Virus record (IMG/VR): IMGVR_UViG_2700989538_000002
Origin: a virus
DNA length: 64,000 nucleotides
Reading direction: 5' to 3' (one strand)
Shown piece by piece: positions 4,171 to 48,745 of this stretch. Both the position numbers and the translations under genes were made by a program. The notes under the pieces were generated by a model. It saw nothing but the letters and a program-made list of their open reading frames with translations, ran no database searches and was not told the origin of the DNA. The number at the start of each line of letters is the position of its first letter. Within the stretch, counting starts at the first letter, position 1.

Positions 4171-4959
4171 ATGGCTACGCCACAAGGAATCAAGTCGGAC
4201 AGGTATCTGTTAAAAATTACACAGCTAGCACTGGTTATGAAACTCACACCAGAGGTCATAACCATGTTCGACGATCCCAATCAGCGTTACCGACTCCGTT
4301 ACCCTGCCAATACCAATCTCAGTCAGTACTACGATGAGACCTTTGAAGGCCTCCCCCTGATGCTCAGCAAGGGGCCTTTCATCCGAGAGCACTTGGCTCG
4401 TCTCAAGCGCACCATCGAGCTCGCCATGGCTCAATATCCAAGGGTATTAGCATTCAGGGTAGATCTCCGCTTACCCCAGGGTATCGATCTGCCTGACTAC
4501 GCCTATACGAACGAGGTCATTACTCGGTTCTTTGAATCGTTTACGAAGAAGATACAGCACCACCAGAAGAGAGTGGGTGAGCGTGGCTATGCTCGTGGCT
4601 GCAAGGTCCGGTACGTCTGGTCAAGGGAAGTCGGTCAAAGAGGCAGGAGGCCGCACTACCACTTGCTGATCCTCCTGAACCGTGATGCCTATTACACGGT
4701 AGGACGACTGCGTTCAGAGAGGGTGAACATGATCAGTCGTATGGAAGGCTCGTGGGCTGGTGCGTTGGGGATATCAGCCGATCAGGTGAAGGGGCTGGTG
4801 GACATCCCGAAGAATGCTGAATACCTACTCAACCGTGATGTCCGTCCTGATGATATCGATGAGCTGTCAGAGCTGTTCTATAGAGCCAGTTACCTGTGCA
4901 AGACCGCTACAAAGCGCTACGGGGATCGCCAGCGAGGCTTCGACACCAGCAGGGGATAG
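4171..4959 (+). CDS. YfjJ / inovirus Gp2-family protein (DUF3296), typical CP4-57-type island gene
   Basis: 262 aa with conserved segments RLAEHLARLKRTIE, VLAFRVDLRLP and HYHLLILLNRDAYY, recalled from this family. Lies directly downstream of alpA, as in CP4-57-like islands. Confidence 0.6.
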   Translation: MATPQGIKSDRYLLKITQLALVMKLTPEVITMFDDPNQRYRLRYPANTNLSQYYDETFEGLPLMLSKGPFIREHLARLKRTIELAMAQYPRVLAFRVDLRLPQGIDLPDYAYTNEVITRFFESFTKKIQHHQKRVGERGYARGCKVRYVWSREVGQRGRRPHYHLLILLNRDAYYTVGRLRSERVNMISRMEGSWAGALGISADQVKGLVDIPKNAEYLLNRDVRPDDIDELSELFYRASYLCKTATKRYGDRQRGFDTSRG

Positions 4960-5125: not shown

Positions 5126-6586
5126 TTAGAACGGCGGCTCTATTGGTTCAGTGGGCAAAGCAGGCTGGCTACCGGCGAGGAGATCAAGTAGAGCTTTCAG
5201 GCGATCGACAAGCTCGTCAAACGTCACTACATGAACCCCCTGCAGGGTGTGTCGGTATTGCTCGAAGCCTTGGATCTGCTCCTCATCAGTCGGTTTGAGA
5301 CCAGCGACAACTACGCAGGCAATGGAGTGTGGGCGGAAGCCTTTACGGTCCAGTTCCGTTCCGATAAGCCTGAAGTTCTGCTGCAGCTCCGACCGCTGGG
5401 CGACGACTTGAGCAACGGCGCCACTAAGGTCATGGGAAGGCGGATAAATGCCGCGGTACACCGTCCCCACGAGCTGGGTGCCGGGGCGCTTGATCTCAAC
5501 CAGGGCCAGGTTGTTCGTTGCTGCCGCAGCCATCAAAAAGTCACTATGTGAGCCGCCACTCCCCCTGAACGACTTCCCGCCAACATAGGGAGTGTCCCCA
5601 ATTTTCACGACTGGGTAATGGAACGCCATGGTGAGGATGAAGGGGTTATCGGAAAGGAACGATTGCCATTTCGGCTCAGTGGTCGAGACGTCCAGCAGCT
5701 GTGTACAGCGATCAATCAGCTCACGGAGGCTGACCAGTTCGATGTTCTCCTTTAATCGTAGCAGTTCGGCCGGCTCTTCCTTGGCTAGCGACGTTGTGTG
5801 CTGCTGCACCAACTTCACAGCGGCTCGCTGATCTCGTTTGGTGAGCTTTATCCCGCCGCTGGCGGAAGACGTCATTTCAGCAAGGGTATCGGGTGGTAGC
5901 GATAGGTGCTCTTTCTGGAACGACTCTGGTGCAACCCTATGCAACAGAGTGTTGTGACAAATTGTCCGCTTCTCTTTCCGTGCTGCGCGCTGATGCCGCT
6001 CGGAGATCGACGTGAGTTGTTTCCGCAGCGCGTGGAACGTGTGCATGCCAAGTAGATAAAAGGGAGGGCGCGTAAAGTCCGTGCCTGGTTGATCAGCAGG
6101 AGCATGAAAGATGATGGTGTCGATATCCGGCATTTCCTGGATCGTGGTGATGATGCTGCGGAACTCCCATCGCAAGCCCAGCCCATACCTCCAGTCCTTG
6201 TAGAACCCTGCCGGGAGACCTTCTAACATGTCCTCCAGCATGCCGTTGTCAGTTGGTAGCTCGTATTCATCATCAATGGGCTTGTAAATCATGATTCGGC
6301 GGATGCTATCGAACAGAGGCTTTCCGTAATCTCGATGGCCAAAGCGTTGCTGAATGGGCCAGATCGTCAGCATTTCAGTGGTCACATTCATGATGTGCAG
6401 CCATGGATCAGCACCAATCGCCGTCCCGTCTGGAACAGGAACGTCCGAATAGAAGACGTCGACGCCGGCAATGGTTTCTCCCGGCTTAGCGGGCAGCCCA
6501 GTATCGTCAAGTGGGAGTAGAGCCAAGAAGGGGCCGCCGTCAGTGCGCTGAGCTTGACGGTACTCACTGTTCGTAACGGAGGCCAT
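5126..6586 (-). CDS. Shedu-like (DUF4263) protein: C-terminal PD-(D/E)xK nuclease domain with a long unassigned N-terminal region
   Basis: C-terminus has ...SDFLMAAAATNNLALVEIKRPGTQL... (D-x20-E-I-K), preceded by EPKWQSFLSDNPFIL, a DUF4263-like pattern. Best start is ATG at 6584-6586 with an AGGGAA RBS; upstream candidates are TTG or lack an RBS. Confidence 0.45.
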   Translation of the reverse strand: MASVTNSEYRQAQRTDGGPFLALLPLDDTGLPAKPGETIAGVDVFYSDVPVPDGTAIGADPWLHIMNVTTEMLTIWPIQQRFGHRDYGKPLFDSIRRIMIYKPIDDEYELPTDNGMLEDMLEGLPAGFYKDWRYGLGLRWEFRSIITTIQEMPDIDTIIFHAPADQPGTDFTRPPFYLLGMHTFHALRKQLTSISERHQRAARKEKRTICHNTLLHRVAPESFQKEHLSLPPDTLAEMTSSASGGIKLTKRDQRAAVKLVQQHTTSLAKEEPAELLRLKENIELVSLRELIDRCTQLLDVSTTEPKWQSFLSDNPFILTMAFHYPVVKIGDTPYVGGKSFRGSGGSHSDFLMAAAATNNLALVEIKRPGTQLVGTVYRGIYPPSHDLSGAVAQVVAQRSELQQNFRLIGTELDRKGFRPHSIACVVVAGLKPTDEEQIQGFEQYRHTLQGVHVVTFDELVDRLKALLDLLAGSQPALPTEPIEPPF

Positions 6587-6834
6587 TCTGGATTCCCTGA
6601 AAGCTGGCATTGTCGGGAGGGTGGCAGCGAGCCGATGCGACGTCAACGTGCTGCTCTAGCCTGAGTCAGTACCTTCACAGGTGACCTTATTCGGGAAGAA
6701 TGCTCTTCGGGATGCATCCGAGGAACATTTGTTCCTTTGTACCTTTTCTGGACAGCGTCAAACCAGACTCATGACAATGTCGCATCGGGCTGTTGCCCAG
6801 CTTTGGGCAACGCCTCCAGAAAGGAACTCATGCC

Positions 6835-12283: not shown

Positions 12284-13714
12284 TCATCCTGCATTGTTTG
12301 CCTGGGTGGTATCAGGTTGGTAACACTTGGCTTCTATTTTATCGCGGTCTGTATACATCAAGCTGGATGATCCTTCTGCGGTTTTCAGCCATTCCGATTT
12401 TTCGCGTAGGCAGGCCTCTATTTCATTTTGGGGGGGCATAGGAGCCAGTGTTGTCGATTGGATCGAAGGTATGTCTACAAGAAGTGTTATCTCCGCGTGG
12501 TAGGGGATGCTTTCGTAATGGACGCTATCGAAGAATCGTCCTGGTAGCCGAGCATCAATGTTGGATACATCGATGAGCCCTATTTTATTTGGGTGCTCAT
12601 TGCGCATGTGTTCTGGGGGCAAAATGGCTACCTGAATTGCTTGGCCTTTAAGCCAGCTGATTACGGCGGTTAGTCTCCCATCTAGATCAAATACGCGCTC
12701 TAAACCATCTTTTACTATTGATTGGTTGATGGTCTGCGTATTATCGTCTGTGCCAAGACCGTTGTACTGGCCGACTTGCTGGCCGTTGATCCACTGGAAA
12801 TGTTTTGCACTGATGACCTTGCCGCGTTGCCATTGAACTTCGTAGGTTACATTTCCGCTACGGTCCCAGCGCTTTTCCAGCCCGTCGTACGCTAGGCTTT
12901 CCCATTTGTCGCGTTTGTCATTGACCCGGATTTGATTGACGAGGCGGGAAAGAGAACCAATGTCGTATTCTCTAATGACTGTTGACATTAGGGTTCCGTT
13001 CTCATAGGTCTCTTCCTGGTTTGTCAGTCCATGGATTGAGGTCTTCTGCAGGCCATGTCGAACTCCCATTTTATAATTCTGTTCAGCAACGACCTGGCCA
13101 TTAGCGAGTTCTAGTTGACGGCCGTGGGGTACTCCATCGACTAGGATTTGTTGCTTGTTGTAGCGGTTGTCAAATCCGGTTTCTTTGCCATTTTTCCATT
13201 CGAGACTGGTAATCAAGGTTTCCCCGCCACCCGACCAGTACTTCTCGGCTCCATCCTTTTTGCCGTTCTGGAAATGGGTTTCTGCAATGACCTTTCCATT
13301 GGCTGGGTTGAATTGAGCGGATAGCCCATTTTGTTTGTTTCTCTGCCATTGGATTCGATGGGTGAGATTTCCTGTTTCAGCGTCATAGCGCTCTTCGATT
13401 CCATCTTTTTCTCCAGCCCTGAAGTGGAGGCGACTGACGATCATTCCTGATCTGGTGGAGCAAACGGTCTCTCCGCTGGGAAGGCCTTTCTGAACCTCAA
13501 TCATGCAGCTTCCTACATTCACCAATCCCAGTAGTGATATAGGGAAGTTGAGGATGCGGCCGGTGTAAGGTTCCGTATCGTGCAACTTATATATAAGGCC
13601 TTGATTCTCATGCGTCTGGCGATAGTCGATTTCTTCGCTGAAACAGCCTGATATGAAAGTGGTCGAGATCAAGGCAAGGATGAAGACTGTCTGGCGGGAG
13701 TGCTTGTAAAGCAT
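12284..13714 (-). CDS. lipoprotein with MORN-variant (YwqK-family) repeats, about 476 aa
   Basis: Lipobox LISTTFISGC after MLYKHSRQTVFILA. Repeated Y/W-x-N-G-x-x-x-G motifs (YTGRILNF, WQRNKQNGLSAQFNPANGKVIAETHFQNGKKDGAEKYW, WKNGKETGFDNRYN). ATG at 13712-13714 with an AGGAG RBS. About 42% GC. Confidence 0.55.
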   Translation of the reverse strand: MLYKHSRQTVFILALISTTFISGCFSEEIDYRQTHENQGLIYKLHDTEPYTGRILNFPISLLGLVNVGSCMIEVQKGLPSGETVCSTRSGMIVSRLHFRAGEKDGIEERYDAETGNLTHRIQWQRNKQNGLSAQFNPANGKVIAETHFQNGKKDGAEKYWSGGGETLITSLEWKNGKETGFDNRYNKQQILVDGVPHGRQLELANGQVVAEQNYKMGVRHGLQKTSIHGLTNQEETYENGTLMSTVIREYDIGSLSRLVNQIRVNDKRDKWESLAYDGLEKRWDRSGNVTYEVQWQRGKVISAKHFQWINGQQVGQYNGLGTDDNTQTINQSIVKDGLERVFDLDGRLTAVISWLKGQAIQVAILPPEHMRNEHPNKIGLIDVSNIDARLPGRFFDSVHYESIPYHAEITLLVDIPSIQSTTLAPMPPQNEIEACLREKSEWLKTAEGSSSLMYTDRDKIEAKCYQPDTTQANNAG

Positions 13715-13782
13715 AATGACTCCTAGAGTGTGCTCGACCTGGAGATAAGTATTTAGCTGATCCCCAGCATCGTGGAGGCTGG

Positions 13783-14232
13783 CTACCAGCCGTAGCGGCA
13801 AGTGCTTTTATGACTGTCGAGGGGCGGCAGAACTTTTTTGATGTCCTGCACGGGTAGGCGTACTGTTTGCCCGTCGGCTGTTATGAAGAGGTTGTTTGCC
13901 TTGCGCAAAGCTGGCCAGAATTCTTGGAAGTTGGCCGCACAGACACGACATTCAGTATAAAAAGGGTTGTGATAACGTTCGCCATCGACGATTACGTCGA
14001 AACCCGTGTCGCTATGAGAGGCGTAGTTCTTTCCAGCAATCGTGGCGTAGGCGCTGATGTATTTTTCCTCGTCATCAGGGCAGGAAATATTCAGCTCATT
14101 TCCATTACCATCATCGACGAGGTGTTCGCTAACACCCATGCCCCAGCCCGATGTCCATTTATAGGTGCCGGCTGTAGCGGTATTAGCCATTATCCAGCAC
14201 AGCAGGGCGATCAAGGCGATGTTCCTGTTCAT
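13783..14232 (-). CDS. secreted cysteine-containing protein, 149 aa (signal peptide MNRNIALIALLCWIMANTATA)
   Basis: ATG at 14230-14232 with an AGGA RBS. Signal peptide followed by Cys-containing motifs (ISCPDD, TECRVCAANF). Low GC. Confidence 0.45.
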   Translation of the reverse strand: MNRNIALIALLCWIMANTATAGTYKWTSGWGMGVSEHLVDDGNGNELNISCPDDEEKYISAYATIAGKNYASHSDTGFDVIVDGERYHNPFYTECRVCAANFQEFWPALRKANNLFITADGQTVRLPVQDIKKVLPPLDSHKSTCRYGW

Positions 14233-15180: not shown

Positions 15181-15678
15181 TTACAGGTAGCCTTGTTCCG
15201 CCAGCGACACGCAGCCCTCGCGGCCTACGACGATATGGTCCAGGGTTCGTACCCCGACCAGGTTCAGGGCCTCCCGCAGTTTATGGGTCAGGGTGAGATC
15301 TGATTGGCTGGGCTCCGGATCTCCGGAAGGGTGGTTGTGCACCAGGATGACGGCCGCGGCGTTGTGCTCCAGGGCCGCCTTGACGATCTCGCGGGGATAG
15401 ACGCTGGCGCTGTCCAGGGTGCCCCGGAACAGCTCGTGAAAGGCGATCACCCGATGCCGACTGTCGAGCAGGAGCAGGGCGAACACCTCATGCTCGTAAT
15501 CGGCCAATAGCGTCTGCAGGTGACTGAACACCTCCGGTGGTGAGGTCAGTGCTCTTCCCCGGCGCAGCCGCAGATTCGCCAACTGCCGGGCCATCAGCAG
15601 GATGTCGGTTTCGGTGACCGGCGACTCGACCAGATAGGTACCGGTCGAGTCACTGGCCTTCAGCTTGTGCAGACGCAT
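15181..15678 (-). CDS. radC: RadC-like JAB-domain protein
   Basis: JAMM-type signature HNHPSGDPEPSQSD in ...AAAVILVHNHPSGDPEPSQSDLTLT. Typical ICE/island cargo. Confidence 0.8.
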   Translation of the reverse strand: MRLHKLKASDSTGTYLVESPVTETDILLMARQLANLRLRRGRALTSPPEVFSHLQTLLADYEHEVFALLLLDSRHRVIAFHELFRGTLDSASVYPREIVKAALEHNAAAVILVHNHPSGDPEPSQSDLTLTHKLREALNLVGVRTLDHIVVGREGCVSLAEQGYL

Positions 15679-16600
15679 AAGGGGCTCCTTGGTGTTGATC
15701 GATCGATGGGGGTTGGTGTTGGGCTTGCGCCTCCAGCTTCTCGGCCAGACTGGCTTTCGATGATTTGTGCGGCGTTTTGGCGTTTACCGATTGGCTCTCC
15801 TCTGCGGGGTAGAACTCCTCGACGACGGCCCCCGCGTCTTCCTCGCTGTCCTCGAAGGCGCCATTGCCGAAGCCACGCCGTGCCGCCTCATCCAGCGCGA
15901 GCTGATCGAAGCCCGCCGCCTGACGTTGCGCATCGAGTTCATTGGCCGCCTGCAGTGCCTCGGCCATGTCCAGACCGCTGCGAACCGTAAGGTCGACATA
16001 GAAGATCGGCGTGCCGTGGCTCTGCCGGGTGGACTTGCCGCGCAGGCGCAGCTCCAGCGGCAGACAGGCCAGGCGGTTGCCGGAGATGGCCTGGAAGTAA
16101 TGCAGACGAGCCGCCAGCGTGCGGATGCTGTTGAAACCCGTGGTGCGGAGCACAAAGCTGCCCAATGGGTCGTCATCGCCAATGACCACGTTCAGCCGGC
16201 CGTAGGGCTTGCACGCGCCGCCCTTGGCCAACGGACAGGCATCGGGCGAAGGGCAGGGCAGCGACTGGATACCGTCCTTGCCCAGACGCTTGCAGGTCTC
16301 GCCGTTGCCCACGCAAATCGGTCGTCCGGTCAACCGGTCGAACAGCGTGTAGTCGGCGCGAAAATTCAGCTCCGGCTCATTGAAAAGCAGGCGCACCGGA
16401 ATGCTGCGCAGCTTGTCGTCCTTGTCCTGGCGCAGCTCGTCATTGAGCGGATGCAGCAGCCAGCCAGTTTTGCCCTGCACCTGGGAGGTGATGGTGAACT
16501 GGTCATCCTTCTCCGGCAGACGCTTGCCGTTCTTCTCGATGACCTTGCCGATGGAAATCCGCCCGAGCACCGGCGGGGTGATAGCCAGACCTTTGAGCAT
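15650..16600 (-). CDS. hypothetical island protein, 316 aa (candidate recombination partner of the adjacent YqaJ exonuclease)
   Basis: ATG at 16598-16600 with an AGGAG RBS. Sits between radC and the YqaJ exonuclease, in the SSAP-like position. No recognised motif. Confidence 0.45.
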   Translation of the reverse strand: MLKGLAITPPVLGRISIGKVIEKNGKRLPEKDDQFTITSQVQGKTGWLLHPLNDELRQDKDDKLRSIPVRLLFNEPELNFRADYTLFDRLTGRPICVGNGETCKRLGKDGIQSLPCPSPDACPLAKGGACKPYGRLNVVIGDDDPLGSFVLRTTGFNSIRTLAARLHYFQAISGNRLACLPLELRLRGKSTRQSHGTPIFYVDLTVRSGLDMAEALQAANELDAQRQAAGFDQLALDEAARRGFGNGAFEDSEEDAGAVVEEFYPAEESQSVNAKTPHKSSKASLAEKLEAQAQHQPPSIDQHQGAPYASAQAEGQ

Positions 16601-16687
16601 GATGGCGCTCCTGAAATGAAAAAAGGCCAGCCACACAGCGCAAACTGAGTGGACTGGCCAAGGGGAGGGAGGGGATGAAGAGGAAAA

Positions 16688-18835: not shown

Positions 18836-19165
18836 TCAGACCGGCAGGTTGAAGCGATAACCGCAGAGCAGGCAGAGGTTGTGGGCCAGGACATGACGGT
18901 CGAGCGACTCACCGAGCTGTGCGCCCAGCGCACAGCCACCAACCCCACCGGCCAGGCCGCCGAGGATGGCGCCCGATACGGAACCTAGGGTGATGCCGAC
19001 AGGGCCGGCGAACGCGCCGATAGCTGCGCCAGCCTGGCCACCTGCCAGGGCAACGCTGACGCCACGCGCAACACCGCCCACGGTGCCGATGGCGGCACCG
19101 ACTTTCATGGCGTGATGGAAGGAAGCGACTTTGGGGGAGTGACAGCGAGGGCACTGCAATGACAT
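18836..19165 (-). CDS. glycine-zipper membrane protein flanked by CxxC pairs (CPRC...CLLCG)
   Basis: Gly/Ala-rich zipper GGVARGVSVALAGGQAGAAIGAFAGPVGITLGSVSGAILGGLAGGVGG. Confidence 0.35.
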   Translation of the reverse strand: MSLQCPRCHSPKVASFHHAMKVGAAIGTVGGVARGVSVALAGGQAGAAIGAFAGPVGITLGSVSGAILGGLAGGVGGCALGAQLGESLDRHVLAHNLCLLCGYRFNLPV

Positions 19166-19476
19166 GGGGTGAACCTCCTTGGTGCTGATGTCATTGCTGT
19201 TATGTAGGCTTGAGAATTTTTTGAATCGGATGGTTGTGTTTTGAGCAGTTCATTTGGGGGCAAAGAACTTCAGTCGACCCGCTGTGGTCAGTCGCATCAG
19301 GCAAAAGCCGGCTAAAAGCGGACGCTTATGAGATCCAATCAGGTTTTATTAAGACTCACTTCCGTACGTCTGTAGCGCCCAGATTTACAGATCTCAGAAG
19401 GCGTAAAAATGGAGGTTGAGCACGAGTAACCGACCAGAGCGATCACTTGGCGACATTAGGTTCTGCCACATAAATT

Positions 19477-19502
19477 TATGTAGTATCCTACATTAGAAAA
19501 TG
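19477..19502. promoter_or_regulatory. overlapping operator-like palindromes ACATAAATTTATGT and ATGTAG-TATC-CTACAT (three ACAT/ATGT half-sites)
   Basis: Read from the sequence in a 30%-GC stretch 22 bp upstream of the HTH gene 19524..19808. Resembles a controller-protein operator. Confidence 0.4.
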
Positions 19503-19523
19503 TGACCTGATTTTGGCTTTGAG

Positions 19524-19808
19524 ATGCCGTATTCGGATTTCCTTGCAGAGCTTCAGAAGGCAGGCCTGAGTGTTCGTGCGTTTGCCGAACTGATCGGCAT
19601 GAATCCGAACTCACTTTCCAATTATGCACGGTGCGGCGAACTGCCTACCCATATTGCACTGATTGCGGTTCTTGTAGCCGGAATCAGCGAGATGGGAGGC
19701 GACTATCGTCAAATCATGTCAAAGGTCATCCTCACGCCGAAGAGGCCGCGAGGCGGTGCTCGACAGGGACGCTTCGGAGGCGACCCACAGCAGGACATGG
19801 ATTTCTGA
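19524..19808 (+). CDS. small XRE-like HTH protein, candidate R-M controller (C) protein, 94 aa
   Basis: LSVRAFAELIGMNPNSLSNYARCGELPTHIAL HTH. First gene of the methyltransferase/nuclease operon. Confidence 0.5.
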   Translation: MPYSDFLAELQKAGLSVRAFAELIGMNPNSLSNYARCGELPTHIALIAVLVAGISEMGGDYRQIMSKVILTPKRPRGGARQGRFGGDPQQDMDF

Positions 19809-19893
19809 ACCATGACGAATTATCGTCCCAACCAAAAGCCTAGGCTCGTCAAGGCGGCGCACCGGCCCCTAGCCATAACGGTAGGGCAAGCCG

Positions 19894-22800
19894 ATGGCTG
19901 ATCTCATCACCTCGCTTGTCGACTTCGGCGCCGATCCGAGCGCGGTTCGACTGTTCGATACCGATACCCCCGATCTGTTGCCTTACGCGACGCTTTTGGC
20001 TGCGCGTCGTGGCGATAATGGTGTGCTTGGCGCCGTGCGTGCTGTCTACGAATGGCAAGGCGCGCCGCTTATATTCCTAGTGGACGCTGACTCGCTCGCG
20101 GACGACGACCAGTTGCATCGCATACGCCGCCTGCTCGCCATGCGTGGAGACGCACCCTACATGGGTGTAGTCGCGCCGGGACGGCTCAATGTGTATCGCA
20201 TTGAACTCGACAAGTGCTCCCTGCGGCAGGCGCATGTCGAGATGGGCAGCAACGACGATGAAAAGTACGTAACGCTGGCGCGGTTGGGCAATCTGCGCCC
20301 GCGTGCCGCGATCAGCCAGCGCGGCTGGATTTCGAACGTCGTGCTAAATCTGCTTACCGGCTCGATTACACGGCTGATCGAATTGGGCGGCGTGTCGGAC
20401 GAAGATGCCATCTCGCTGGTCGGCCGAGCGTTGTTCACGCGTTTCCTTGCCGATCGCAACCTGTTGCCAGGCGGCATGTCCACACCCGGCACGGCTGCCA
20501 TGCTTTTCGACAACCGGGTAGCAGCCAAAAGCACCTCGAAATGGCTCGACACCACCTTTAATGGCGATCTGCTGCCCCTGTCGGAGGGCATTTTCGATGT
20601 ACTCTCGCAGCAGGCATTCTTGGTGCTGGGAGACGTTCTCAGGCGGGCACCGGACAGCCAGCTTTTTCTTGGCTGGCAAGAGAAGTGGGACAATCTCGAC
20701 TTCGCCCATATCCCCGTAGGCGTCCTGAGCCAGGCCTACGAGCTTTATCTGCGCAATCATGCTCCGGATCGGCAAAAGCGCGAGGGCGGCTTCTACACGC
20801 CACGCCCAATTGCCGACCTGATGGTTCGTGCCTCGTTCCGCGCCCTGGAGCGCAACGGAGCCAGCAAGGACGCCAAGGTGCTTGATCCATCGGCGGGAGC
20901 CGGCGTTTTTCTGCTGACGGCGTTCCGCGAACTGGTGGTCGAGCGCTGGCGCGCAGATGGAGAGCGCCCCAGCACACGAACTCTTAGGTCGATTCTCTAC
21001 CAGCAGATCACCGGTTTCGACATCAACGAGGCCGCGTTACGCTTTGCGGCGCTTGGTCTGTATCTCATGTCGATCGAGCTGGATCCCAACCCGAGGCCCG
21101 TGGATAAGCTCCGTTTCGAGAACCTGCGCGGCAAAGTGCTGCACCGTCTCGAGGTGCAGTCCCCGGAGGACGGCGCTGAACTGGGGAGCCTTGGCCCGCT
21201 GATCGATGAGCGGCATATAGGCAGATATGACCTGGTGATTGGCAATCCACCGTGGTCGAGCGGCACCAAGCTGCGAGATTGGCATCTGGTGCGCAACGCG
21301 GTCGCCCGTATCGCCAGCAATAGGCAAATCTCCAATCCCTCCCCGCCATTGCCAAACGAAGGGCTCGACCTTCCGTTCGTATGGCGCGCCATGGAGTGGG
21401 CGAAAGCCAATGGCCAGATTGCCTTCGCACTGCACGCACGTCTGCTTTTCCAACAGGGCGATGGCATGGTGGAGGCGCGCCAAGCGTTGTTCGAGGCGCT
21501 TGACGTTACCTCGATCATCAATGGCGTCGAACTGCGGCAGACCAAGGTGTGGCCCGAGATCTCGGCGCCATTCTGCCTCCTGCTCGCAACCAACCGGCGG
21601 CCAGGTGTAGGCGCCGGCTTTCGCCTCATCAGCCCCAGGCTGGAGCAGGCATTGAACGATGCAGGCAGCATGCGGATAGATGCGCTGAACGCCGAGCTCG
21701 TGCCGTCCTCACAACTTTTCGAAACGCCCGATATCCTGAAGATACTGTTCCGCGGGACAAAGGCCGATCTGGGCATAGTGGAGCGCATTCGCGCCCAAGG
21801 GCATCCGACGCTCGATGCTTACTGGCGTAGCCGTATTGGCGTGACAGAGCGGGGCCTCTTGCAGGGCAGCGGGAATGGCTATCAGCGGCTCCGGCCAAGC
21901 AGCCGGGTTCGCCGGCAAGGCGATGGCCTGCCGGGGGTGGACGCGAGTTACCTTCACGGCCTTCCGGAGATCAACGCCGAAACCTTCACCGGCCTGTTCA
22001 TCGATGGCGATGGTCTGGGGTCGTTTTCGCAGGCACGTATCCACGACCCCAGGTCCCCCTCTCTGTTCGCCGGCCCCTTGATCATCGTTCACAAATCCCC
22101 TCCTGCCGCGACGGGGCGGATAGGTATTGCAGTGGCGGAAAGGGACGTCGTCTTCAACGAGACCTTCTACGGCTATAGCCCAGGCGCACATCCCGATGCC
22201 GCATCACTGGTCCGCTACCTAGCGCTGATTCTCGGCAGCCAACTGGCGGTGTGGTTGGCGCTAGTTACCAGCGGAGAGTTCGGCTTCGAGCGCGAGGTCA
22301 TCGAGAAATACACCCTTGATCGCATTCCCATTCCCGACTTCGATGCCCTTGAGCCTGTCAGGCGCAAAGAAGTTTTCCAGTTGTTCGAGAGGTTGCGCAT
22401 GGGAGAGGTCTCCTGGCAGGACATCGACGAGTGGGTGGCGCGTCTTTATGGGCTGGGAACACGCGATCTGCAGGTTATTTCCGACACGCTCGCATACAAC
22501 CTGCCCTTTTCTGAAAACAAGCACAGGGCCCAGTCCCTTCCGAGGCCGGAGGAAAAGGCGAGATTCTGTGAAGTACTTGCCAGTGAATTGGCACCTTGGT
22601 GCGAGCGCTTCGGTTCCTCTCTCGTGGTACGACCAGCGTTCCAGCCTGCCGCTTCGCCCTGGCACGGTATCGAATTGCGGGTAGGCAACACCCACGCTAC
22701 CTCGGAGAACGATTGGGAAGGATTGTTGCGCGCCGCCGATGAGATCATGAGTTCGGAAATTCTGATCCGCACCGATGGCAATGGACTACTGATCGGACGG

Positions 22801-22902
22801 CTGGCCCAGCAGCGTTACTGGAGCGAGACGCAGGCGAGGCTGCTTGCACAACGCATCATCTGGTCACACCTGGACATATTGAAAGGATGCATCGAGGTAT
22901 GA
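19894..22902 (+). CDS. large N6-adenine DNA methyltransferase-family protein (HsdM/Eco57I-type N6_Mtase core, gamma-class order), 1002 aa, with unassigned N- and C-terminal regions
   Basis: GGFYTPRPIADLMVRA (N6_Mtase motif X), VLDPSAGAGVFLL (motif I) and LVIGNPPWSS (motif IV, NPPW). About 300 aa before and about 550 aa after the catalytic core. Confidence 0.8.
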   Translation: MADLITSLVDFGADPSAVRLFDTDTPDLLPYATLLAARRGDNGVLGAVRAVYEWQGAPLIFLVDADSLADDDQLHRIRRLLAMRGDAPYMGVVAPGRLNVYRIELDKCSLRQAHVEMGSNDDEKYVTLARLGNLRPRAAISQRGWISNVVLNLLTGSITRLIELGGVSDEDAISLVGRALFTRFLADRNLLPGGMSTPGTAAMLFDNRVAAKSTSKWLDTTFNGDLLPLSEGIFDVLSQQAFLVLGDVLRRAPDSQLFLGWQEKWDNLDFAHIPVGVLSQAYELYLRNHAPDRQKREGGFYTPRPIADLMVRASFRALERNGASKDAKVLDPSAGAGVFLLTAFRELVVERWRADGERPSTRTLRSILYQQITGFDINEAALRFAALGLYLMSIELDPNPRPVDKLRFENLRGKVLHRLEVQSPEDGAELGSLGPLIDERHIGRYDLVIGNPPWSSGTKLRDWHLVRNAVARIASNRQISNPSPPLPNEGLDLPFVWRAMEWAKANGQIAFALHARLLFQQGDGMVEARQALFEALDVTSIINGVELRQTKVWPEISAPFCLLLATNRRPGVGAGFRLISPRLEQALNDAGSMRIDALNAELVPSSQLFETPDILKILFRGTKADLGIVERIRAQGHPTLDAYWRSRIGVTERGLLQGSGNGYQRLRPSSRVRRQGDGLPGVDASYLHGLPEINAETFTGLFIDGDGLGSFSQARIHDPRSPSLFAGPLIIVHKSPPAATGRIGIAVAERDVVFNETFYGYSPGAHPDAASLVRYLALILGSQLAVWLALVTSGEFGFEREVIEKYTLDRIPIPDFDALEPVRRKEVFQLFERLRMGEVSWQDIDEWVARLYGLGTRDLQVISDTLAYNLPFSENKHRAQSLPRPEEKARFCEVLASELAPWCERFGSSLVVRPAFQPAASPWHGIELRVGNTHATSENDWEGLLRAADEIMSSEILIRTDGNGLLIGRLAQQRYWSETQARLLAQRIIWSHLDILKGCIEV

Positions 22903-23612
22903 GCGCTCCGGCTATCCGGCCCCGCCCCGACCAGATCGGCGAACTGACACGCGGCCTGCACCTGCCGCTCCCGGCGGTGGACGCCTTGCATTTGGAGATC
23001 ATCGCCGAAGGGCTATCCCGCGCATTCGCTGATGTTCGCGCACATCACCCGCTGGTGGTGAGCTCGGGTAGTGAGGCAGAAGTGACTAGCTTGATGGAGG
23101 CGCGCCTGAACGCACTGATCGGACAGGATCCCTTCTGGGGCCAGTTGGTGACGTGTGTCGTACGAGGCAAGGAAAGCGTGAGCTTCGACGGTTCGCATAT
23201 CGAGAAGCGGCCTGATCTCTCGATCTATCTGTCTAGTCGGGCACGGAACTTCCCTCTGATCGCCGAAGCGAAGATCATCGACTCCGGTGCATCCAAGACA
23301 GAGGCTTTGTACTGCGACAAAGGCTTGCATCGATTTCTTGCTGGAGAGTATGCCTGGGCGAACCAGGAAGCCTTCATGGTCGCTTATGTGCGCGACGGGT
23401 CGTCGATCAGCGATAGGCTGCTCCCATTTCTGGCAGACGCCATGACTCAGGCGCCTCCCCGTTATGCGGTGGAAGCGCTGCCCACCTCCTACTCAAGCGG
23501 TAAAAGTGATCTGGCGTGGTCTCGACACGCTAGAGGCTTCGTCTACAACCATCAGGCCCCACCCGCCCATCATCCTGGCTCAATTGCTATTTGGCATCTA
23601 TGGCTGTCGTAG
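22899..23612 (+). CDS. PD-(D/E)xK-family nuclease (restriction endonuclease-like), 237 aa, translationally coupled to the methyltransferase
   Basis: EKRPDLSIYLSSRARNFPLIAEAKIID gives PD-x20-E-A-K. ATG overlaps the upstream TGA (ATGA). RBS AAAGGA 11 nt upstream. Confidence 0.55.
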   Translation: MSAPAIRPRPDQIGELTRGLHLPLPAVDALHLEIIAEGLSRAFADVRAHHPLVVSSGSEAEVTSLMEARLNALIGQDPFWGQLVTCVVRGKESVSFDGSHIEKRPDLSIYLSSRARNFPLIAEAKIIDSGASKTEALYCDKGLHRFLAGEYAWANQEAFMVAYVRDGSSISDRLLPFLADAMTQAPPRYAVEALPTSYSSGKSDLAWSRHARGFVYNHQAPPAHHPGSIAIWHLWLS

Positions 23613-23638: not shown

Positions 23639-24895
23639 TCACCGTATTGAAACGACTTTCCTATCCCGATTTTCCTGGATAGCAGCCACAGACAGGTTGC
23701 CAGTGGCTGCTTCCTGGATATGCTCGCTCCACCAGGTCATCATCGGGCGTCTGCGCTCGATGTAGTCCGCCCGGTTGTAGGCGCTGCGAACCTCATCCTT
23801 GTCGACATGCGCAAGCGCTACCTCGATCAGTTCAGGATCCCAGCCATGCTCGTTGAGGATGGTGCTCGCCATCGAGCGCATGCCGTGGCTGACCAGGCGC
23901 CCTTCGAAACCCATGCGTTTGAGTGCCATGTTGGCGGTCTGGCTGTTGCAGTGAGTGCGAGGGTTCCGGTCTGCGGGGAACACGTACTCTCGGTGTCCGC
24001 TGTACGGCTTGATCGCCTCCAGAAGTGCGAGGGCCTGTTCCGTGAGCGGGACGATATGCGTCCGGCGTTTCTTCATGCGTTCCGCAGGAATCGTCCAGAT
24101 CTTCTTCTCGATGTCGATGTCCGCCCAGCGTGTGGTTGCCGCCTCCGCTGGTCGGGTCATGGTGTGAAGTTGCCATTCGATCAGGCACCGAGTGGTCCTT
24201 TTGATGCTCGCATTGGCGACTGCCACCATGAGCTCTTTCAGCTCATCGGGAGGCAGCGCCGCCATGTTCTTCTTTTTCGGCTTCTTGAAGACGGAGCGGA
24301 TCCCGCTGAGCGGATTCGCGTGAATCAGTCCCGAATTGACCCCGTAGGTCATGATCTCGTTGAGCCGCTGCGTCAGCCGCTTCACGGTCTCAAGGCTGCC
24401 CTTGGTTTCGAGCGGCCGGAGCAGGTTGATGACCTTGGGGGCATTGATGGCGGAGATCGGGGTGCTGCCCAGGTCGGGGAAAACGTGCAGCGTGAGGGAG
24501 CGCCAGATGTCTTCGGCGTAGGCCTGTGTGACCGCATCCTTTTTCAGCTCATACCAGGCCGTCGCCACGTTCTGGAAGGTGTGTTCGGTCGCCGCCTTCT
24601 TGGCCTGTTGCACGGCATCCCGTTTCTCTTTGGGGTCGATCCCGTGGGCGAGGAGTTCCCGTGCTTCAACGGTTCTTTTGCGTGCCTGCGCCAATGAAAC
24701 TTCGGGGAAGGTTCCGAGCCCCATGTTGATCCGGTTCTTCGTCACCGGGTGCCGGTAGTTGAAGTTCCAGAGCTTTGAGCCATTGCTTCTCACTCGCATT
24801 TGAAGGCCGTCACCATCGCTCAGAACGTAGTCTTTCTCTTGAGGCTTGGCGGCTTTGACCTTGAGGTCCGAGAGGCGGGTGGCTTGGGCGCACAT
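23639..24895 (-). CDS. int: P4-type tyrosine integrase with DUF4102 arm-binding N-domain
   Basis: N-terminus LSDLKVKAAKPQEKDYVLSDGDGLQMRVRSNGSKLWNFNYR (DUF4102). C-terminal R...H-x-x-R...Y catalytic region (HGMRSMASTIL...AYNRADY). Lies next to a tmRNA 3' fragment. Confidence 0.85.
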   Translation of the reverse strand: MCAQATRLSDLKVKAAKPQEKDYVLSDGDGLQMRVRSNGSKLWNFNYRHPVTKNRINMGLGTFPEVSLAQARKRTVEARELLAHGIDPKEKRDAVQQAKKAATEHTFQNVATAWYELKKDAVTQAYAEDIWRSLTLHVFPDLGSTPISAINAPKVINLLRPLETKGSLETVKRLTQRLNEIMTYGVNSGLIHANPLSGIRSVFKKPKKKNMAALPPDELKELMVAVANASIKRTTRCLIEWQLHTMTRPAEAATTRWADIDIEKKIWTIPAERMKKRRTHIVPLTEQALALLEAIKPYSGHREYVFPADRNPRTHCNSQTANMALKRMGFEGRLVSHGMRSMASTILNEHGWDPELIEVALAHVDKDEVRSAYNRADYIERRRPMMTWWSEHIQEAATGNLSVAAIQENRDRKVVSIR

Positions 24896-25761: not shown

Positions 25762-26943
25762 CTAGCCAGTTGGCAGGTTTTCTAGGTCTGGTGTCAAGCG
25801 CTTTTTGCCCCACAGGTCCTCCGCTTTCGATCCAGCGTGCTCATCAGCTGTTGGCATCCACCTGCCGTAGACCCTGGCAATCATCGTCCAGTCGCTGTGC
25901 CCCATCTGCTGCGCAACCCACATGGGGTGCTCGCCGGCGGACAGCATCATCGAGGCATAGGTGTGCCGGGTCTGGTAGGGACGACGGTAGCGCACGCCGG
26001 CCTTCTTCAGCGCGTAAACCCACAGTGTTTTCCGGATCGGTCCGTCGCCGACCCATCGCTCGCCCGTCCTTGGATTCTGGAAGACTTCCTGGTTGGCCAG
26101 GTAGGTGAATGCCTTCTGCGCTTTCAGGGCTTCCAGCGCAGGGCCGAGCAGCTTGATGCTGCGCCGGCCGGATGTGGTTTTCGTCACCTCCGCTTTCCCC
26201 TTGGCCGCCTGGGTCATGGCGCGAGTGACATGCACCTCGCCGCGGAGCCAGTCAATATCGCCCCACTCGAGGCCGACGAGTTCGCTGGTCCGCATCCCCG
26301 TCCAGAGTGCGAACTGCACCAGGTTCCGCCCTTGACCATCCAAGGCATCCAGAATCGCTCGCTGCTCTTCCGGCGAGAACGGGTCCACGTCGTCGCCCTT
26401 GACCTCTCCCTTCCTTGCGTATGTCCAGCCGGCGAGGGGATTGTTGTCGATCAGTTCCTCTTCCATCGCATCACTGAGGGCCGAGCGTAGGCAGCTCTGG
26501 ATATTGCTGAGTGTCTTGTTGCTCACCTTCAAAGTATCCAGCCAATCCTTGACGGTTTTCCGCTTCAGGTCGACCACCATGACGGGGCCTAGGGCTGGCA
26601 CCAGGCGAAGCTCTACAATCTTCCTGTAGCCCTCGAAGGTACTGCTGGAGACGTGCTTGCGCTTCGACTCAAGCCATCGGCCAAGGAATCCCGTAACCGT
26701 TTCGCGTGACGCCTCAGGCGCAAACTTGGCGGCGCGCGGAGATCCAGGAAATGTCACCGAGTAGTCGAAGGTGCCGGCGGCGATCGCATGTTCGACAGCC
26801 GCCTTATGCTGCTCCGCTCGCTTCAGGTTAGTGGCGGTGGGCTTGAGCGAGATGCGCTCCCGGCACCTGACGCCGCGATACATGAACGTGATTTCGATAC
26901 TCGAATCAGAGACCGCCCTGACTCCCCGCCCATCTCTACCCAT
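25762..26943 (-). CDS. int: lambda-family tyrosine integrase (prophage)
   Basis: C-terminal catalytic region ...RPYQTRHTYASMMLSAGEHPMWVAQQMGHSDWTMIARVYGRW (H-x-x-R...Y). The preceding small gene overlaps it in the usual xis-int arrangement. Confidence 0.85.
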   Translation of the reverse strand: MGRDGRGVRAVSDSSIEITFMYRGVRCRERISLKPTATNLKRAEQHKAAVEHAIAAGTFDYSVTFPGSPRAAKFAPEASRETVTGFLGRWLESKRKHVSSSTFEGYRKIVELRLVPALGPVMVVDLKRKTVKDWLDTLKVSNKTLSNIQSCLRSALSDAMEEELIDNNPLAGWTYARKGEVKGDDVDPFSPEEQRAILDALDGQGRNLVQFALWTGMRTSELVGLEWGDIDWLRGEVHVTRAMTQAAKGKAEVTKTTSGRRSIKLLGPALEALKAQKAFTYLANQEVFQNPRTGERWVGDGPIRKTLWVYALKKAGVRYRRPYQTRHTYASMMLSAGEHPMWVAQQMGHSDWTMIARVYGRWMPTADEHAGSKAEDLWGKKRLTPDLENLPTG

Positions 26944-46036: not shown

Positions 46037-46582
46037 ATGAGCAAAAACGAAACAACCAAGCAGCGCGGATGGTTGAACAAGTCCGAGATGGCCGCGAGCC
46101 TCGGAATTTCTCCGCAAGCCTTTGATAAATGGGGCGTTCAACCAATCGAGCGAATAGGTCGAGAGGCCTTTTACACGGTGGCGGATGTGGTTGAAAACCG
46201 CATCCAGCACGCCGCTCGGAAACAACAACCTGAGGGGGAGCTACCGGAAGGTCTCGATCCCTACGCTGAAGCCAAGCTGACACAGGAGCGACTCCGGCTC
46301 ACCAAGGCCCAGGCCTACGCCCAAGAGCAGAAAAACCAGGTCCAGGACAAGCTCCTGGTCCCGGTCCCGTTCGCCACTTTCGCCCTGGCGAAAATCGCCG
46401 CCAAGATCGGCTCGGCGTTGGAGACCGTCTGCAAAACGGTCAGTCGCCGCTACCCGGATGCTGATCCCTTGGTGATGGAGTCCTTCGAGCGGGAGATCGC
46501 CTTGGCGCGAAACCTATCCGCTGAGTTCAGCGACGACATCCCGGGAATCCTTGATGAGTACCTTGCAACCCTGGATCAGTGA
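46037..46582 (+). CDS. terminase small subunit (Nu1-like, HTH)
   Basis: LNKSEMAASLGISPQAFDKWGV HTH. Immediately upstream of the large terminase subunit. Confidence 0.5.
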   Translation: MSKNETTKQRGWLNKSEMAASLGISPQAFDKWGVQPIERIGREAFYTVADVVENRIQHAARKQQPEGELPEGLDPYAEAKLTQERLRLTKAQAYAQEQKNQVQDKLLVPVPFATFALAKIAAKIGSALETVCKTVSRRYPDADPLVMESFEREIALARNLSAEFSDDIPGILDEYLATLDQ

Positions 46583-48530
46583 TCTGCGCACTGCGGTCAA
46601 GCTGGGTTTGCAGGGAATGTTCAAAGAGCCGCCGATGACGGCGGTGGAGTGGGCCGACAAGCATTTCTACATGTCGGCCGAGTCCTCTTACAACGAGGGC
46701 CGCTGGAAGACTGCGCCATTCCAGGTCGCGATCCTGAACGCGATGGGCAACGACCTGATTCGAGTGGTCAACTTCGTGAAGTCGGCCCGGATCGGTTACA
46801 CGAAGCTGTTGCTGGCCAACATCGGCTACAAGATCCAGCACAAGCGCCGCAACGTGATGATGTGGAGTCCGACCGACCCGGACGCCGAGGACATCAGCAA
46901 GAGCCACGTCAACGGCCTGATCCGCGACGTGCCGGTCATGCTGGAACTGGCGCCTTGGTTCGGTCGGAAGCACAGCGATAACACCTTGGACAACAAGGTG
47001 TTCGCGAACCGACGCAACCTCTGGATTCGCGGCGGCAAGGCCTCCCGGAACTACCGGGAGAAGTCCCCCGACGAGGTTATCTACGACGAGCTGTCGAAGT
47101 TCGACGCCGACGTCGAGGGCGAAGGCTCGCCGACATTCCTGGGTGACAAGCGCCTGGACGGTGCGGTCTACCCGAAGTCTATCCGGGGATCGACGCCTGG
47201 GGTCGCTGGCGCTTGCCAGATCACCAAGGCGGCGGAAGAGTCTCCGCACCGGCTGCGCCTGCATATTGCTTGCCCGCATTGTCAGCGGGAGCAGCACCTG
47301 AAGTTTGGCGGCAAGGATTGTGAGTTCGGCCTGAAGTGGGAAAAGAACGAGCTGGGCGAGGCCGAGCGCGCCTGGTACGTCTGTGAGCACTGTGCAGCCT
47401 GTTTTGAACACCGCGACATGGTGGTGGCCCAGGCTAAAGGCCGCTGGATCTGCGACGAGACCGGCATCTGGACGCGCGACAGTATCGACTGGTTCGGCCC
47501 AAACAACGAGCCGATCCGCACGCCGCGCTCGGTCAGCTTCTACTGCTGGGCGATCTACAGCACCTGGACGACCTGGGTGTCGCTGGTTGACGAGTGGCTC
47601 AAGGTCAAGGGCGACCGCGAGAAGCTAATCACCTTCATCAACACCACGCGCGGCGAGGTGTGGGAAGAAGAGCAGGGCGACCGCGTGGAGTGGCAGACGC
47701 TCTACGCTCGCCGCGAGAACTACCCGAAGGTGCCACCCCAGGCGCTGGTCCTGATGGGCGGCATCGACACCCAGGACGACCGCTACGAGGGCCGCGTCTG
47801 GGCCTTCGGATTGGGCGAGGAGGCCTGGCTGGTGCATCGCTTCATCCTGACCGGCGATCCCGCCAGCGAGGAGTTGCGGCGCAAGGTGGGGTTGGAGATT
47901 CACCGGCAGTTCACCCGGGTAGACGGCGTGCCGATGCGTGTCGAGCGGTGGTGCTGGGATGCTGGCGGCCACTACGCCGACGAGGTGGAGGCCGAGAGCA
48001 TCAAACACGGCGTGCATTGGGTGATCCCGACCTTCGGGGCCAGCGCCTACGGCAAGCCCATCGCGAACTTCCCGAAGCGTCGCAAGCGCAAGGTCTACAA
48101 GACTGAACTGGGCACCGACAACGCGAAGGAGCTGATCTACAGCCGCCTGCGCATTGATGTGCCCATTCCGTGGCAGCCGACGCCCGGCTGTGTGCACTTT
48201 CCGATCGACAGCGACATCTGCGACGAAGACGAACTGAAGCAGATCACCGCCGAGAAGAAGAAGCCGGTGATGGCGAAGGGTGTTCGCGTCCTGCGCTGGG
48301 ATTCCGGCGGGCGCCGAAACGAGGCGTTGGATTGCTTCGTGTACGCCCTTGCCGCGCTGCGCATCAGCCAGCAGCGCTTCGGCCTCGACCTCGATCAGAT
48401 GGGAGCCGCACGCCAGGCTGTTGCCAGGCCGGCGGTCGCCGAAGTGGTCGAGAAACATACCTCCAATCAATCTGCGCAGGACGTGACCAACGCGTTCCTG
48501 GGTACAACAGGTGGCAGTCCATGGCTATGA
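46554..48530 (+). CDS. terminase large subunit (lambda GpA family)
   Basis: Size, position and the GpA-type zinc motif HIACPHCQREQHLKFGG...CEHCAACF. Confidence 0.8.
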   Translation: MSTLQPWISDLRTAVKLGLQGMFKEPPMTAVEWADKHFYMSAESSYNEGRWKTAPFQVAILNAMGNDLIRVVNFVKSARIGYTKLLLANIGYKIQHKRRNVMMWSPTDPDAEDISKSHVNGLIRDVPVMLELAPWFGRKHSDNTLDNKVFANRRNLWIRGGKASRNYREKSPDEVIYDELSKFDADVEGEGSPTFLGDKRLDGAVYPKSIRGSTPGVAGACQITKAAEESPHRLRLHIACPHCQREQHLKFGGKDCEFGLKWEKNELGEAERAWYVCEHCAACFEHRDMVVAQAKGRWICDETGIWTRDSIDWFGPNNEPIRTPRSVSFYCWAIYSTWTTWVSLVDEWLKVKGDREKLITFINTTRGEVWEEEQGDRVEWQTLYARRENYPKVPPQALVLMGGIDTQDDRYEGRVWAFGLGEEAWLVHRFILTGDPASEELRRKVGLEIHRQFTRVDGVPMRVERWCWDAGGHYADEVEAESIKHGVHWVIPTFGASAYGKPIANFPKRRKRKVYKTELGTDNAKELIYSRLRIDVPIPWQPTPGCVHFPIDSDICDEDELKQITAEKKKPVMAKGVRVLRWDSGGRRNEALDCFVYALAALRISQQRFGLDLDQMGAARQAVARPAVAEVVEKHTSNQSAQDVTNAFLGTTGGSPWL

Positions 48531-48745
48531 ACCTTGAGCAATCGCGCGAGATTCTGCAGCGCTACATCGAAGCAGAGCAGGATGTCCTTCTGGGGAAAAC
48601 CGTCTCGTTCAACAGTCGCGTCTTGACCATGGTCGACCTGGGCGAGATTCGTCGCGGTCGCCAGGAGTGGGAGCGCAAGGTGGCAGCTTTGGAGCGTCTC
48701 GCCGGTGGCCAGTCTCGTCCCTACAAGCTGGCGGTCTTCGAATGA
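48521..48745 (+). CDS. gpW-like head-tail joining protein
   Basis: Roughly 70-aa ORF between terminase and portal that overlaps both, as in lambda W. Confidence 0.4.
   Translation: MAMNLEQSREILQRYIEAEQDVLLGKTVSFNSRVLTMVDLGEIRRGRQEWERKVAALERLAGGQSRPYKLAVFE

Follow-up and report, generated by a model that had tools for sequence, protein, structure and literature searches.

We analysed a three-gene cassette on the + strand of the virus record IMGVR_UViG_2700989538_000002 (IMG/VR), a stretch of 64,000 nucleotides (nt) that we refer to as the window. The cassette comprises a gene for a helix-turn-helix (HTH) protein of 94 amino acids (aa) at 19524-19808, a gene for a methyltransferase of 1002 aa at 19894-22902 and a gene for a small putative nuclease at 22899-23612. 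The exact window proteins are present in Pseudomonas aeruginosa, and the names they carry at source are 'XRE family transcriptional regulator', 'HsdM family class I SAM-dependent methyltransferase' and 'hypothetical protein'. A preliminary description of this DNA had read the locus as an atypical restriction-modification (R-M)-like operon composed of a regulator, a giant N6-adenine methyltransferase and a coupled PD-(D/E)xK nuclease. All three open reading frames (ORFs) were found on the + strand, and the reading as such an operon is well supported by conservation, by motifs and by evidence on protein folds.

The stop codon of the methyltransferase gene and the start codon of the nuclease gene overlap in the tetranucleotide ATGA at 22899-22902, and this overlap was present in 12 of the 13 loci compared. 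The coupling through ATGA was therefore described correctly at the outset. The length of 241 aa first given for the small protein, which results from an upstream ATG at 22887, was not upheld. Since its homologues are overwhelmingly 237 aa long and the overlap is so widely kept, we take the product to be 237 aa. At some loci the HTH stop codon also overlaps the methyltransferase start codon, so that in such loci all three genes are translationally coupled.

Proteins and control region of the cassette

The methyltransferase contains the motifs quoted in the preliminary description (FYTPR, DPSAGAGVF and NPPW), and they stand in gamma-class order: motif X as GGFYTPRP at aa 298-305, motif I as DPSAGAGVF at aa 331-339 and motif IV as NPPW at aa 451-454. 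The Pfam family N6_Mtase matched aa 277-563 with an E value of 5e-19, and Eco57I matched with an E value of 3e-9. In the secondary structure of an AlphaFold2 model, an N-terminal alpha/beta domain (aa 1-165; 19894-20388, + strand) precedes a helical linker (aa 166-270) and the gamma-class N6-adenine methyltransferase catalytic domain with motifs X, I and IV (aa 271-570), the latter two together spanning 20389-21603 (+). A C-terminal segment of the gene follows at 21751-22899 (+). The model has a pLDDT (predicted local distance difference test) score of 68, rising to 80-95 over most of the C-terminal third. When it was compared with the PDB by Foldseek, the best match was the Type IIG enzyme BpuSI, with an alignment over the full length, followed by CamA, M.BseCI, PglX, DrdV, MmeI and LlaBIII; for the methyltransferase core plus recognition domain, CamA and M.BseCI were the top structural matches. 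An HsdS-like recognition domain was found in the protein. The segment aa 641-760 is among the most divergent and changes faster than the core in closely related pairs, as would be expected of a DNA-recognition region. These features identify the protein as an N6-adenine methyltransferase of the gamma class that carries a recognition domain of HsdS-like type in the same chain and would be catalytically active.

Flanks free of recognised motifs had been placed at about 300 N-terminal and 550 C-terminal residues. Such flanks do exist, but the stretch free of Pfam matches measures about 276 aa on the N-terminal side and about 440 aa on the C-terminal side. Type IIG profiles of PADLOC were co-linear with aa 167-637 and 680-817, while aa 1-170 matched no PADLOC Type IIG profile, Pfam family or PDB sequence. 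The profile searches that the preliminary description had proposed thus place Type IIG likeness from about aa 167 onward and leave the N-domain unmatched. This N-domain occupies the position of the nuclease domain in Type IIG enzymes. It contains no (D/E)xK motif, no conserved Lys and no residue that is invariant across the superfamily. Neither does the C-terminal domain contain a nuclease motif, its invariant residues including one Glu and no Lys, and hhalign related neither domain to the 237-aa protein.

A Type IIG enzyme is defined as a gamma-methyltransferase in which an N-terminal cleavage domain is permanently present in the same chain (Loenen et al., PMC3874165). The window methyltransferase resembles this class, which together with Type IIL includes BpuSI, DrdV, Eco57I and MmeI, in that a gamma-class N6-adenine methyltransferase and a recognition domain are joined in one chain of about 900-1100 aa, in its motif order X-I-IV and in its structural matches to BpuSI, DrdV and MmeI. 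It departs from the class in lacking the defining N-terminal PD-ExK domain, for the N-domain is without catalytic signature and a separate 237-aa nuclease is encoded instead. The term 'split Type IIG-like', which had been offered as one reading of the locus, fits this anatomy: the protein is co-linear with Type IIG enzymes, its N-domain lacks a catalytic signature and the nuclease invariably has its own gene. Action of the nuclease in trans, which the term also implies, is what we infer.

The small protein (22899-23612, +; residues numbered from the start at 22899) bears the PD-(D/E)xK motif that had been assigned to it. Invariant among close homologues are D106, E123 and K125, together with E59, E61, R89, E92, E102, R104, P105, A124 and D128. 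In a wider set of 61 relatives, with identities as low as 24%, K125 never varies, and conservation of E59, P105, D106 and E123 is 90% or higher; many non-catalytic residues are also conserved across deep divergence, and a conserved peptide at the N-terminus, RPxPDQIxELTRGLxLPLP, is predicted to be disordered. The AlphaFold2 model of this protein is poor (pLDDT 49), and its low-confidence secondary structure has E59 in a helix and D106 ahead of a strand; the strand after that one carries E123-x-K125. These are the positions that the fold requires. As modelled, the protein displays the features of the PD-(D/E)xK superfamily (the alpha-beta-beta-beta-alpha-beta core, the D at the start of a strand, the (D/E)xK on the following one and the acidic helix residue), and we regard it as a putative endonuclease coupled to the methyltransferase gene via ATGA. 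The catalytic motifs of both enzymes are retained on alignment, those of the methyltransferase in close homologues and in the relatives of about 34% identity that were compared, and those of the nuclease down to 24% identity.

The nuclease belongs to no family that our profile searches could name. No significant match was found in Pfam (61 members scanned), NCBIfam, PADLOC, PHROGs or PDB sequences, two different profiles of the family included, and the best PHROG match was at chance level (E 0.2). Only the methyltransferase matched any PADLOC model, and that partially. Two UniRef entries label the small protein 'Restriction endonuclease', so that partial recognition exists already. Among 1.84 billion representatives at 50% identity, 456 relatives of the nuclease were detected (E up to 0.001). 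The full-length relatives among the best 150 of these 456 were mostly about 220-255 aa long, the longest having 326 aa, and no fusion to a methyltransferase was apparent in this set.

The palindromic operator previously noted upstream of the HTH gene was confirmed, and it is double. A putative promoter and two conserved repeats lie at 19461-19503 on the + strand. Inverted repeat 1, ACATAAATTTATGT (19468-19481), fills the 17-nt spacer between a -35-like element, TTCTGC (19461-19466), and a -10-like element, TATCCT (19484-19489), and inverted repeat 2, ACATTAGAAAATGT (19490-19503), follows directly after the latter. Sites of the form ACAT-N6-ATGT occur twice in the whole 64-kb window, against 0.42 expected; both are found here, 22 bp apart from centre to centre. 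The operator pair upstream of the HTH gene is kept in most related loci. The order TTTAC(N) / CACATAAAnnTATGTG / TAnnnT / ACATTAAnnTATGTG is conserved 5' of the HTH gene in loci from several phyla, about 15-25 nt before its start codon. In two Acidobacteriota loci (L008 and L013) the second repeat is missing or degenerate and the first, in the promoter spacer, is retained; the first repeat may be the essential site.

The HTH protein is found in the same position, with 57-80% identity, in 11 of 13 genome loci. It matches regulators in PHROGs, and Pfam places HTH_3/HTH_31 at aa 6-36 below threshold (HTH_3 17.3 bits, cut-off 23). A phmmer search with this protein found none of the solved controller proteins (C-proteins), a family that includes C.AhdI, C.PvuII and C.Esp1396I, even at E values up to 10. 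The likeness to a C-protein that had been claimed for it would therefore be one of function: by its setting the protein may play the part of a C-protein, whereas membership of that family is not detectable in its sequence. It is probably an Xre-like autorepressor or controller of the operon. Like AhdI-type systems ('Type I 1/2'), which have separate M and S subunits together with an independent R and C.AhdI, the cassette has a small HTH regulator heading the operon with a double inverted-repeat operator before its own gene. In C-controlled systems the usual order is C-R (controller, restriction enzyme), with M (modification enzyme) transcribed separately, whereas the order here is C-M-R in one operon. 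Also in contrast to C-boxes, the operator sits inside and downstream of the putative promoter, which suggests plain autorepression rather than activation followed by repression. We envisage that the HTH protein would bind both ACAT-N6-ATGT sites, operator 1 in the promoter spacer and operator 2 over the transcription start, and that expression would surge when the cassette arrives in a new cell and then be held down by autorepression. More distant cassettes have a MerR/AlpA-like regulator instead, or none that is detectable, which indicates that the regulator is exchangeable while the methyltransferase-nuclease pair is constant.

Conservation and spread of the cassette

A genome scan with the 237-aa protein, covering one genome per species, returned 14 loci in Gammaproteobacteria, Alphaproteobacteria, Acidobacteriota (Vicinamibacterales, Bryobacterales) and Desulfarculia, plus one marginal partial match in Solirubrobacterales. 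In 13 of the 14, a methyltransferase of 63-74% identity lies directly upstream of the nuclease, and the loci with this pair represent at least three phyla. A metagenome scan added 80 loci with nuclease relatives 48-99% identical; at 77 of them the methyltransferase runs up to the start of the nuclease, and in the remaining three no more than 545 nt are available upstream. The genes of the island that surrounds the cassette in the window recur in none of the genome loci, apart from distant integrase-family matches in three, while the whole island is conserved in P. aeruginosa. The Rhizobium hainanense locus consists of the three genes by themselves, in a chromosomal setting. Because the flanking genes are not conserved, we regard the cassette as an autonomous, mobile module. 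Its location beside the island integrase, to which attention had been drawn, is incidental, given that the flanks are unrelated in many phyla.

The same layout extends to plasmid relatives with about 34% methyltransferase identity. One is a Pseudomonas frederiksbergensis plasmid on which a 151-aa gene, a 998-aa methyltransferase and a 249-aa nuclease lie beside DUF932 and a 109-aa gene. The window, too, has a gene for a 109-aa Gly/Ala-rich protein, at 18836-19165 on the - strand, between DUF932 and the cassette, and its product is 81% identical to the plasmid one (L024 3785-4114). Since the pair of DUF932 and 109-aa gene precedes a cassette whose methyltransferase is only 34% identical, one backbone position holds different versions of the cassette. 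A conjugative plasmid of Burkholderia glumae carries a 163-aa gene followed by genes for a 548-aa M-like, a 448-aa S-like (specificity-like) and a 221-aa nuclease protein. The 548-aa product aligns to aa 20-518 of the window methyltransferase and the 448-aa product to aa 538-985, and by these alignments the locus appears as a natural split into M-like and S-like subunits. At 23-25% methyltransferase identity, the gene order is still the same on plasmids of Bradyrhizobium betae, Bradyrhizobium elkanii and Mameliella alba, where a MerR-family or 158-aa regulator is followed by a 1032-1035-aa N-6 methylase and an overlapping 'hypothetical protein' of 217-237 aa. These distant small proteins match the hidden Markov model of the nuclease family with E values of 7e-16 to 6e-12, and the D...ExK signature is kept. 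On the B. elkanii plasmid pBel61 (L115 7607-10553), a second large gene annotated with an 'Eco57I restriction-modification methylase domain' lies directly downstream of the cassette, an arrangement that may be a stacked R-M locus.

Divergence of the nuclease was compared with that of the methyltransferase across 53 unique pairs. The Spearman correlation was 0.88 for the methyltransferase core, 0.86 for its C-terminus and 0.83 for its N-domain.

The cassette is frequent in islands of clinical P. aeruginosa, with more than 100 contigs for single sequence variants; one strain that carries it is the NCTC strain of assembly GCA_900455145.1. Three decayed island ends in Pseudomonas/Ectopseudomonas (L030-L032) retain the C-terminal 674 aa of the methyltransferase, with an insertion sequence upstream and the HTH gene missing; the 237-aa nuclease ORF and the integrase are intact. 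Because the promoter and the HTH gene are lost, the nuclease of these remnants is probably not expressed, and they say little about its toxicity.

Candidate function and rival explanations

We consider it probable, on grounds of gene content, motifs and conservation, that the cassette is an autoregulated R-M system in which host adenines are methylated and incoming DNA is cut if unmethylated. The methyltransferase would mark host DNA at its recognition sequence and the nuclease would cut incoming DNA that lacks the mark. How the nuclease finds its target is a separate question. We see about an even chance that it is a dedicated, trans-acting cleavage partner of the Type IIG-like methyltransferase, that is the cleavage half of a 'split Type IIG' enzyme, and we favour this over an autonomous nuclease of the Type IIP kind. 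The nuclease itself would then lack any sequence preference. It would dock on the methyltransferase, perhaps on the non-catalytic N-terminal domain, where Type IIG enzymes carry their fused nuclease, and the whole could be described as a 'split Type IIG' or else as a Type I-like enzyme without a motor. Going one step further, and more tentatively, the 237-aa protein may be a generic, non-sequence-specific subunit that is recruited by the N-terminal (or C-terminal) domain of the methyltransferase, in which case the family would form a two-polypeptide, motor-less R-M class between Type I, with its separate R subunit, and Type IIG, with its fused R domain, and the recognition domain of the methyltransferase would supply the whole of the specificity.

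The strongest rival is an orthodox Type II system. In this case the 237-aa protein would be autonomous, probably homodimeric and sequence-specific, the 1002-aa protein would merely be the cognate modification enzyme, the HTH protein would be the controller and no complex of M and R would form. As in such systems (M.TaqI/R.TaqI, M.BseCI/R.BseCI), R and M are encoded separately, the recognition domain is part of the methyltransferase chain and the PD-ExK nuclease is small; to judge from the sequence, the two adjacent genes have their methyltransferase motifs and nuclease residues intact. Furthermore, the structures closest to the nuclease belong to Type IIP enzymes of similar size that act autonomously as homodimers, so that an independent nuclease fits the structural comparison equally well. 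We nevertheless hold this explanation to be rather unlikely. When Type II nucleases differ in specificity, similarity between their sequences can normally no longer be detected (PMC2441816). The present nuclease family is still recognisable where methyltransferase identity has dropped to 23%, and throughout this range its partner comes from one and the same family of methyltransferases. Unlike in orthodox Type II systems, the two families co-diverge over very deep distances, and this tracking of one by the other is a further reason to prefer a trans-acting partner. So is the conservation of non-catalytic nuclease residues and of the N-terminal peptide predicted to be disordered.

The size of the methyltransferase points in the same direction. 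Orthodox gamma-methyltransferases, including the orphan CamA, have 420-580 aa; the window protein adds about 270 N-terminal residues and a C-terminal domain. Its extra N-terminus consists of a novel domain and a helical linker of the Type IIG/PglX type, which orthodox Type II enzymes do not have. About 270 N-terminal and about 120 C-terminal conserved residues exceed the needs of modification and would be left unexplained by an orthodox Type II system; for this reason, too, we prefer a trans-acting nuclease. The B. glumae variant, in which M-like, S-like and nuclease proteins are separate, resembles a multi-subunit enzyme, and one such family member with separate M-like and S-like genes plus R is also a point of likeness to the AhdI type. 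Finally, expression of both enzymes from one promoter with no delay for R would be risky with an autonomous nuclease.

Several observations weigh against the picture of an autoregulated cassette with a trans-acting nuclease. The structural neighbours of the nuclease, as stated above, are enzymes that act alone. Between near-identical cassettes no block swaps of the recognition region were found, the region showing gradual, faster divergence instead, and there is therefore no clear case of altered specificity with an unchanged nuclease. A simple sigma-70 scan of the window did not flag the promoter site, and the -35 element (TTCTGC) is poor, so that the promoter assignment is a tentative one. 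C-controlled systems do not usually transcribe M together with R from a single promoter, and such an arrangement leaves the survival of a new host at establishment unexplained. In the literature we found no biochemical, methylome or phage-challenge data for any member of the family.

A second rival, which we judge improbable, is a module that serves the mobile element itself, either as a post-segregational killing or addiction pair, or with the methyltransferase pre-protecting transferred DNA and the nuclease acting in exclusion or recombination. Many copies of the cassette do lie on conjugative or mobilisable plasmids and on islands, beside genes for transfer and establishment; examples are DUF932, YqaJ and RadC in the window, a type IV coupling protein (T4CP) and MobF in B. 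glumae, and elsewhere DUF736, toprim and toxin-antitoxin genes. The remnants with a 5'-truncated methyltransferase and an intact nuclease ORF could also be read this way, but with promoter and HTH gene gone their nuclease is probably silent. Against this explanation, the cassette is also chromosomal, with no recognisable mobility genes among the called flanking genes, and tight coupling of M and R together with a controller is what an R-M system needs. Addiction is a known property of R-M systems and hence does not exclude restriction. A role in addiction or establishment is plausible as an additional function that would not replace the R-M reading.

A methylation-dependent (Type IV-like) or methylation-as-signal system, in which the nuclease attacks a foreign or cognate methyl mark and which the preliminary description had raised as methylation-dependent defence, found no support and is very improbable, since no methyl-reading domain (SRA, winged-helix or YTH-like) was detected in either protein and cutting the mark of its own coupled methyltransferase would be suicidal.

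The R-M reading was also set against the named systems with related methyltransferases. Partner genes of BREX (bacteriophage exclusion), DISARM (defence island system associated with restriction-modification) and Type I systems had been reported absent nearby, and this is the case: the upstream neighbours, all on the - strand, are RadC, a Gp3-like recombination directionality factor (RDF), YqaJ and DUF932, and directly downstream of the cassette lies a P4-type integrase (23639-24895). For BREX, there is no BrxA, BrxB, BrxC, BrxL or PglZ nearby, and NCBIfam PglX models scored 20-28 bits against cut-offs of 400-900. For MADS (methylation-associated defence system), NF047738 (MAD2) scored 38.7 bits against a cut-off of 720, with no further mad-like genes in the neighbourhood. 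With Type I systems the cassette shares an HsdM-like gamma catalytic domain, an HsdS-like recognition domain and cleavage on a separate polypeptide, but there is no HsdR with a superfamily 2 (SF2) translocase and no separate HsdS within 10 kb, and the hsdM model TIGR00497 scored 16.9 bits against a cut-off of 242. Unlike in Type I, the nuclease has no ATPase or translocase, its 237 aa being mostly nuclease core with short extensions, and M and S are fused in most members. We rejected BREX, MADS, DISARM and Type I identities on gene content and model scores. Type IIL (the MmeI family) does not describe the cassette either, as only MmeI_Mtase was matched, at 22.7 bits against a gathering score of 27, and no other MmeI domain was present.

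A methylome motif of P. aeruginosa ST235, AAGAYC, has been assigned to the 'Type IIG' protein WP_023098846, which is 39% identical to Mesil_3351 on pMESIL01 (PMC7037351). We considered this motif as a product of the window methyltransferase and rejected it. The enzyme is a different one, because pMESIL01, which is in our plasmid collection, was not matched by the window methyltransferase at E 1e-20.

Most likely, then, the cassette is an R-M system that combines a methyltransferase of Type IIG build, minus the fused nuclease, with a separate nuclease whose family is absent from the annotation libraries searched. Literature searches for split Type IIG systems, for the accessions and for the gene set of the island returned nothing that describes the cassette; REBASE was not covered. 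Present annotation labels the methyltransferase as orphan, 'HsdM family' or 'N-6 DNA methylase' and the nuclease as 'hypothetical protein'. Since only the methyltransferase matches PADLOC, and partially, genomes with the cassette may be credited with an orphan methyltransferase or with a Type IIG enzyme of doubtful status. Plasmids, islands and chromosomes all carry members of this widespread family. Should restriction by the cassette be borne out, catalogues of defence systems would gain an R-M layout that is common yet has gone unannotated. Should the nuclease turn out to act in trans as a subunit, the connection between fused Type IIG enzymes and the multi-subunit enzymes of Type I would become visible in this family, and a modular enzyme with its specificity in one recognition domain would be attractive for engineering. 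Because it is frequent in clinical P. aeruginosa islands, the cassette could affect phage therapy and plasmid uptake.

The surrounding island and the adjoining prophage

The island holds a second candidate defence gene, since at 5126-6646 (-) it encodes a protein of 506 aa whose C-terminal nuclease domain is of the Shedu SduA type (PF14082, E 1e-20); the exact sequence of this protein had no entry in the gene-position index. A setting that bears other defence genes of this sort agrees with an R-M role for the cassette. A lambda-like prophage occupies 25160-64000, in tandem with the island and adjoining its integrase. It begins with a second tyrosine integrase at 25762-26943 (-) and includes terminase gpA (46551-48530), portal (48667-50388) and tape measure (55560-58043) genes. 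No tRNA gene was found anywhere in the 64-kb window, and the attachment site is therefore not a tRNA.

The genes for the Gp3-like RDF and RadC, at 15181-16636 (-), have 29 nt in common, which they read in different frames; a P. aeruginosa assembly that is nearly identical (L027 9566-10984) has a single fusion of 472 aa called in their place. The island further encodes a YagK/YfjJ-family protein at 4171-4959 (+) and a MORN-repeat protein at 12284-13801 (-), and some sister islands have an additional YfjT-like gene and a small HTH gene.

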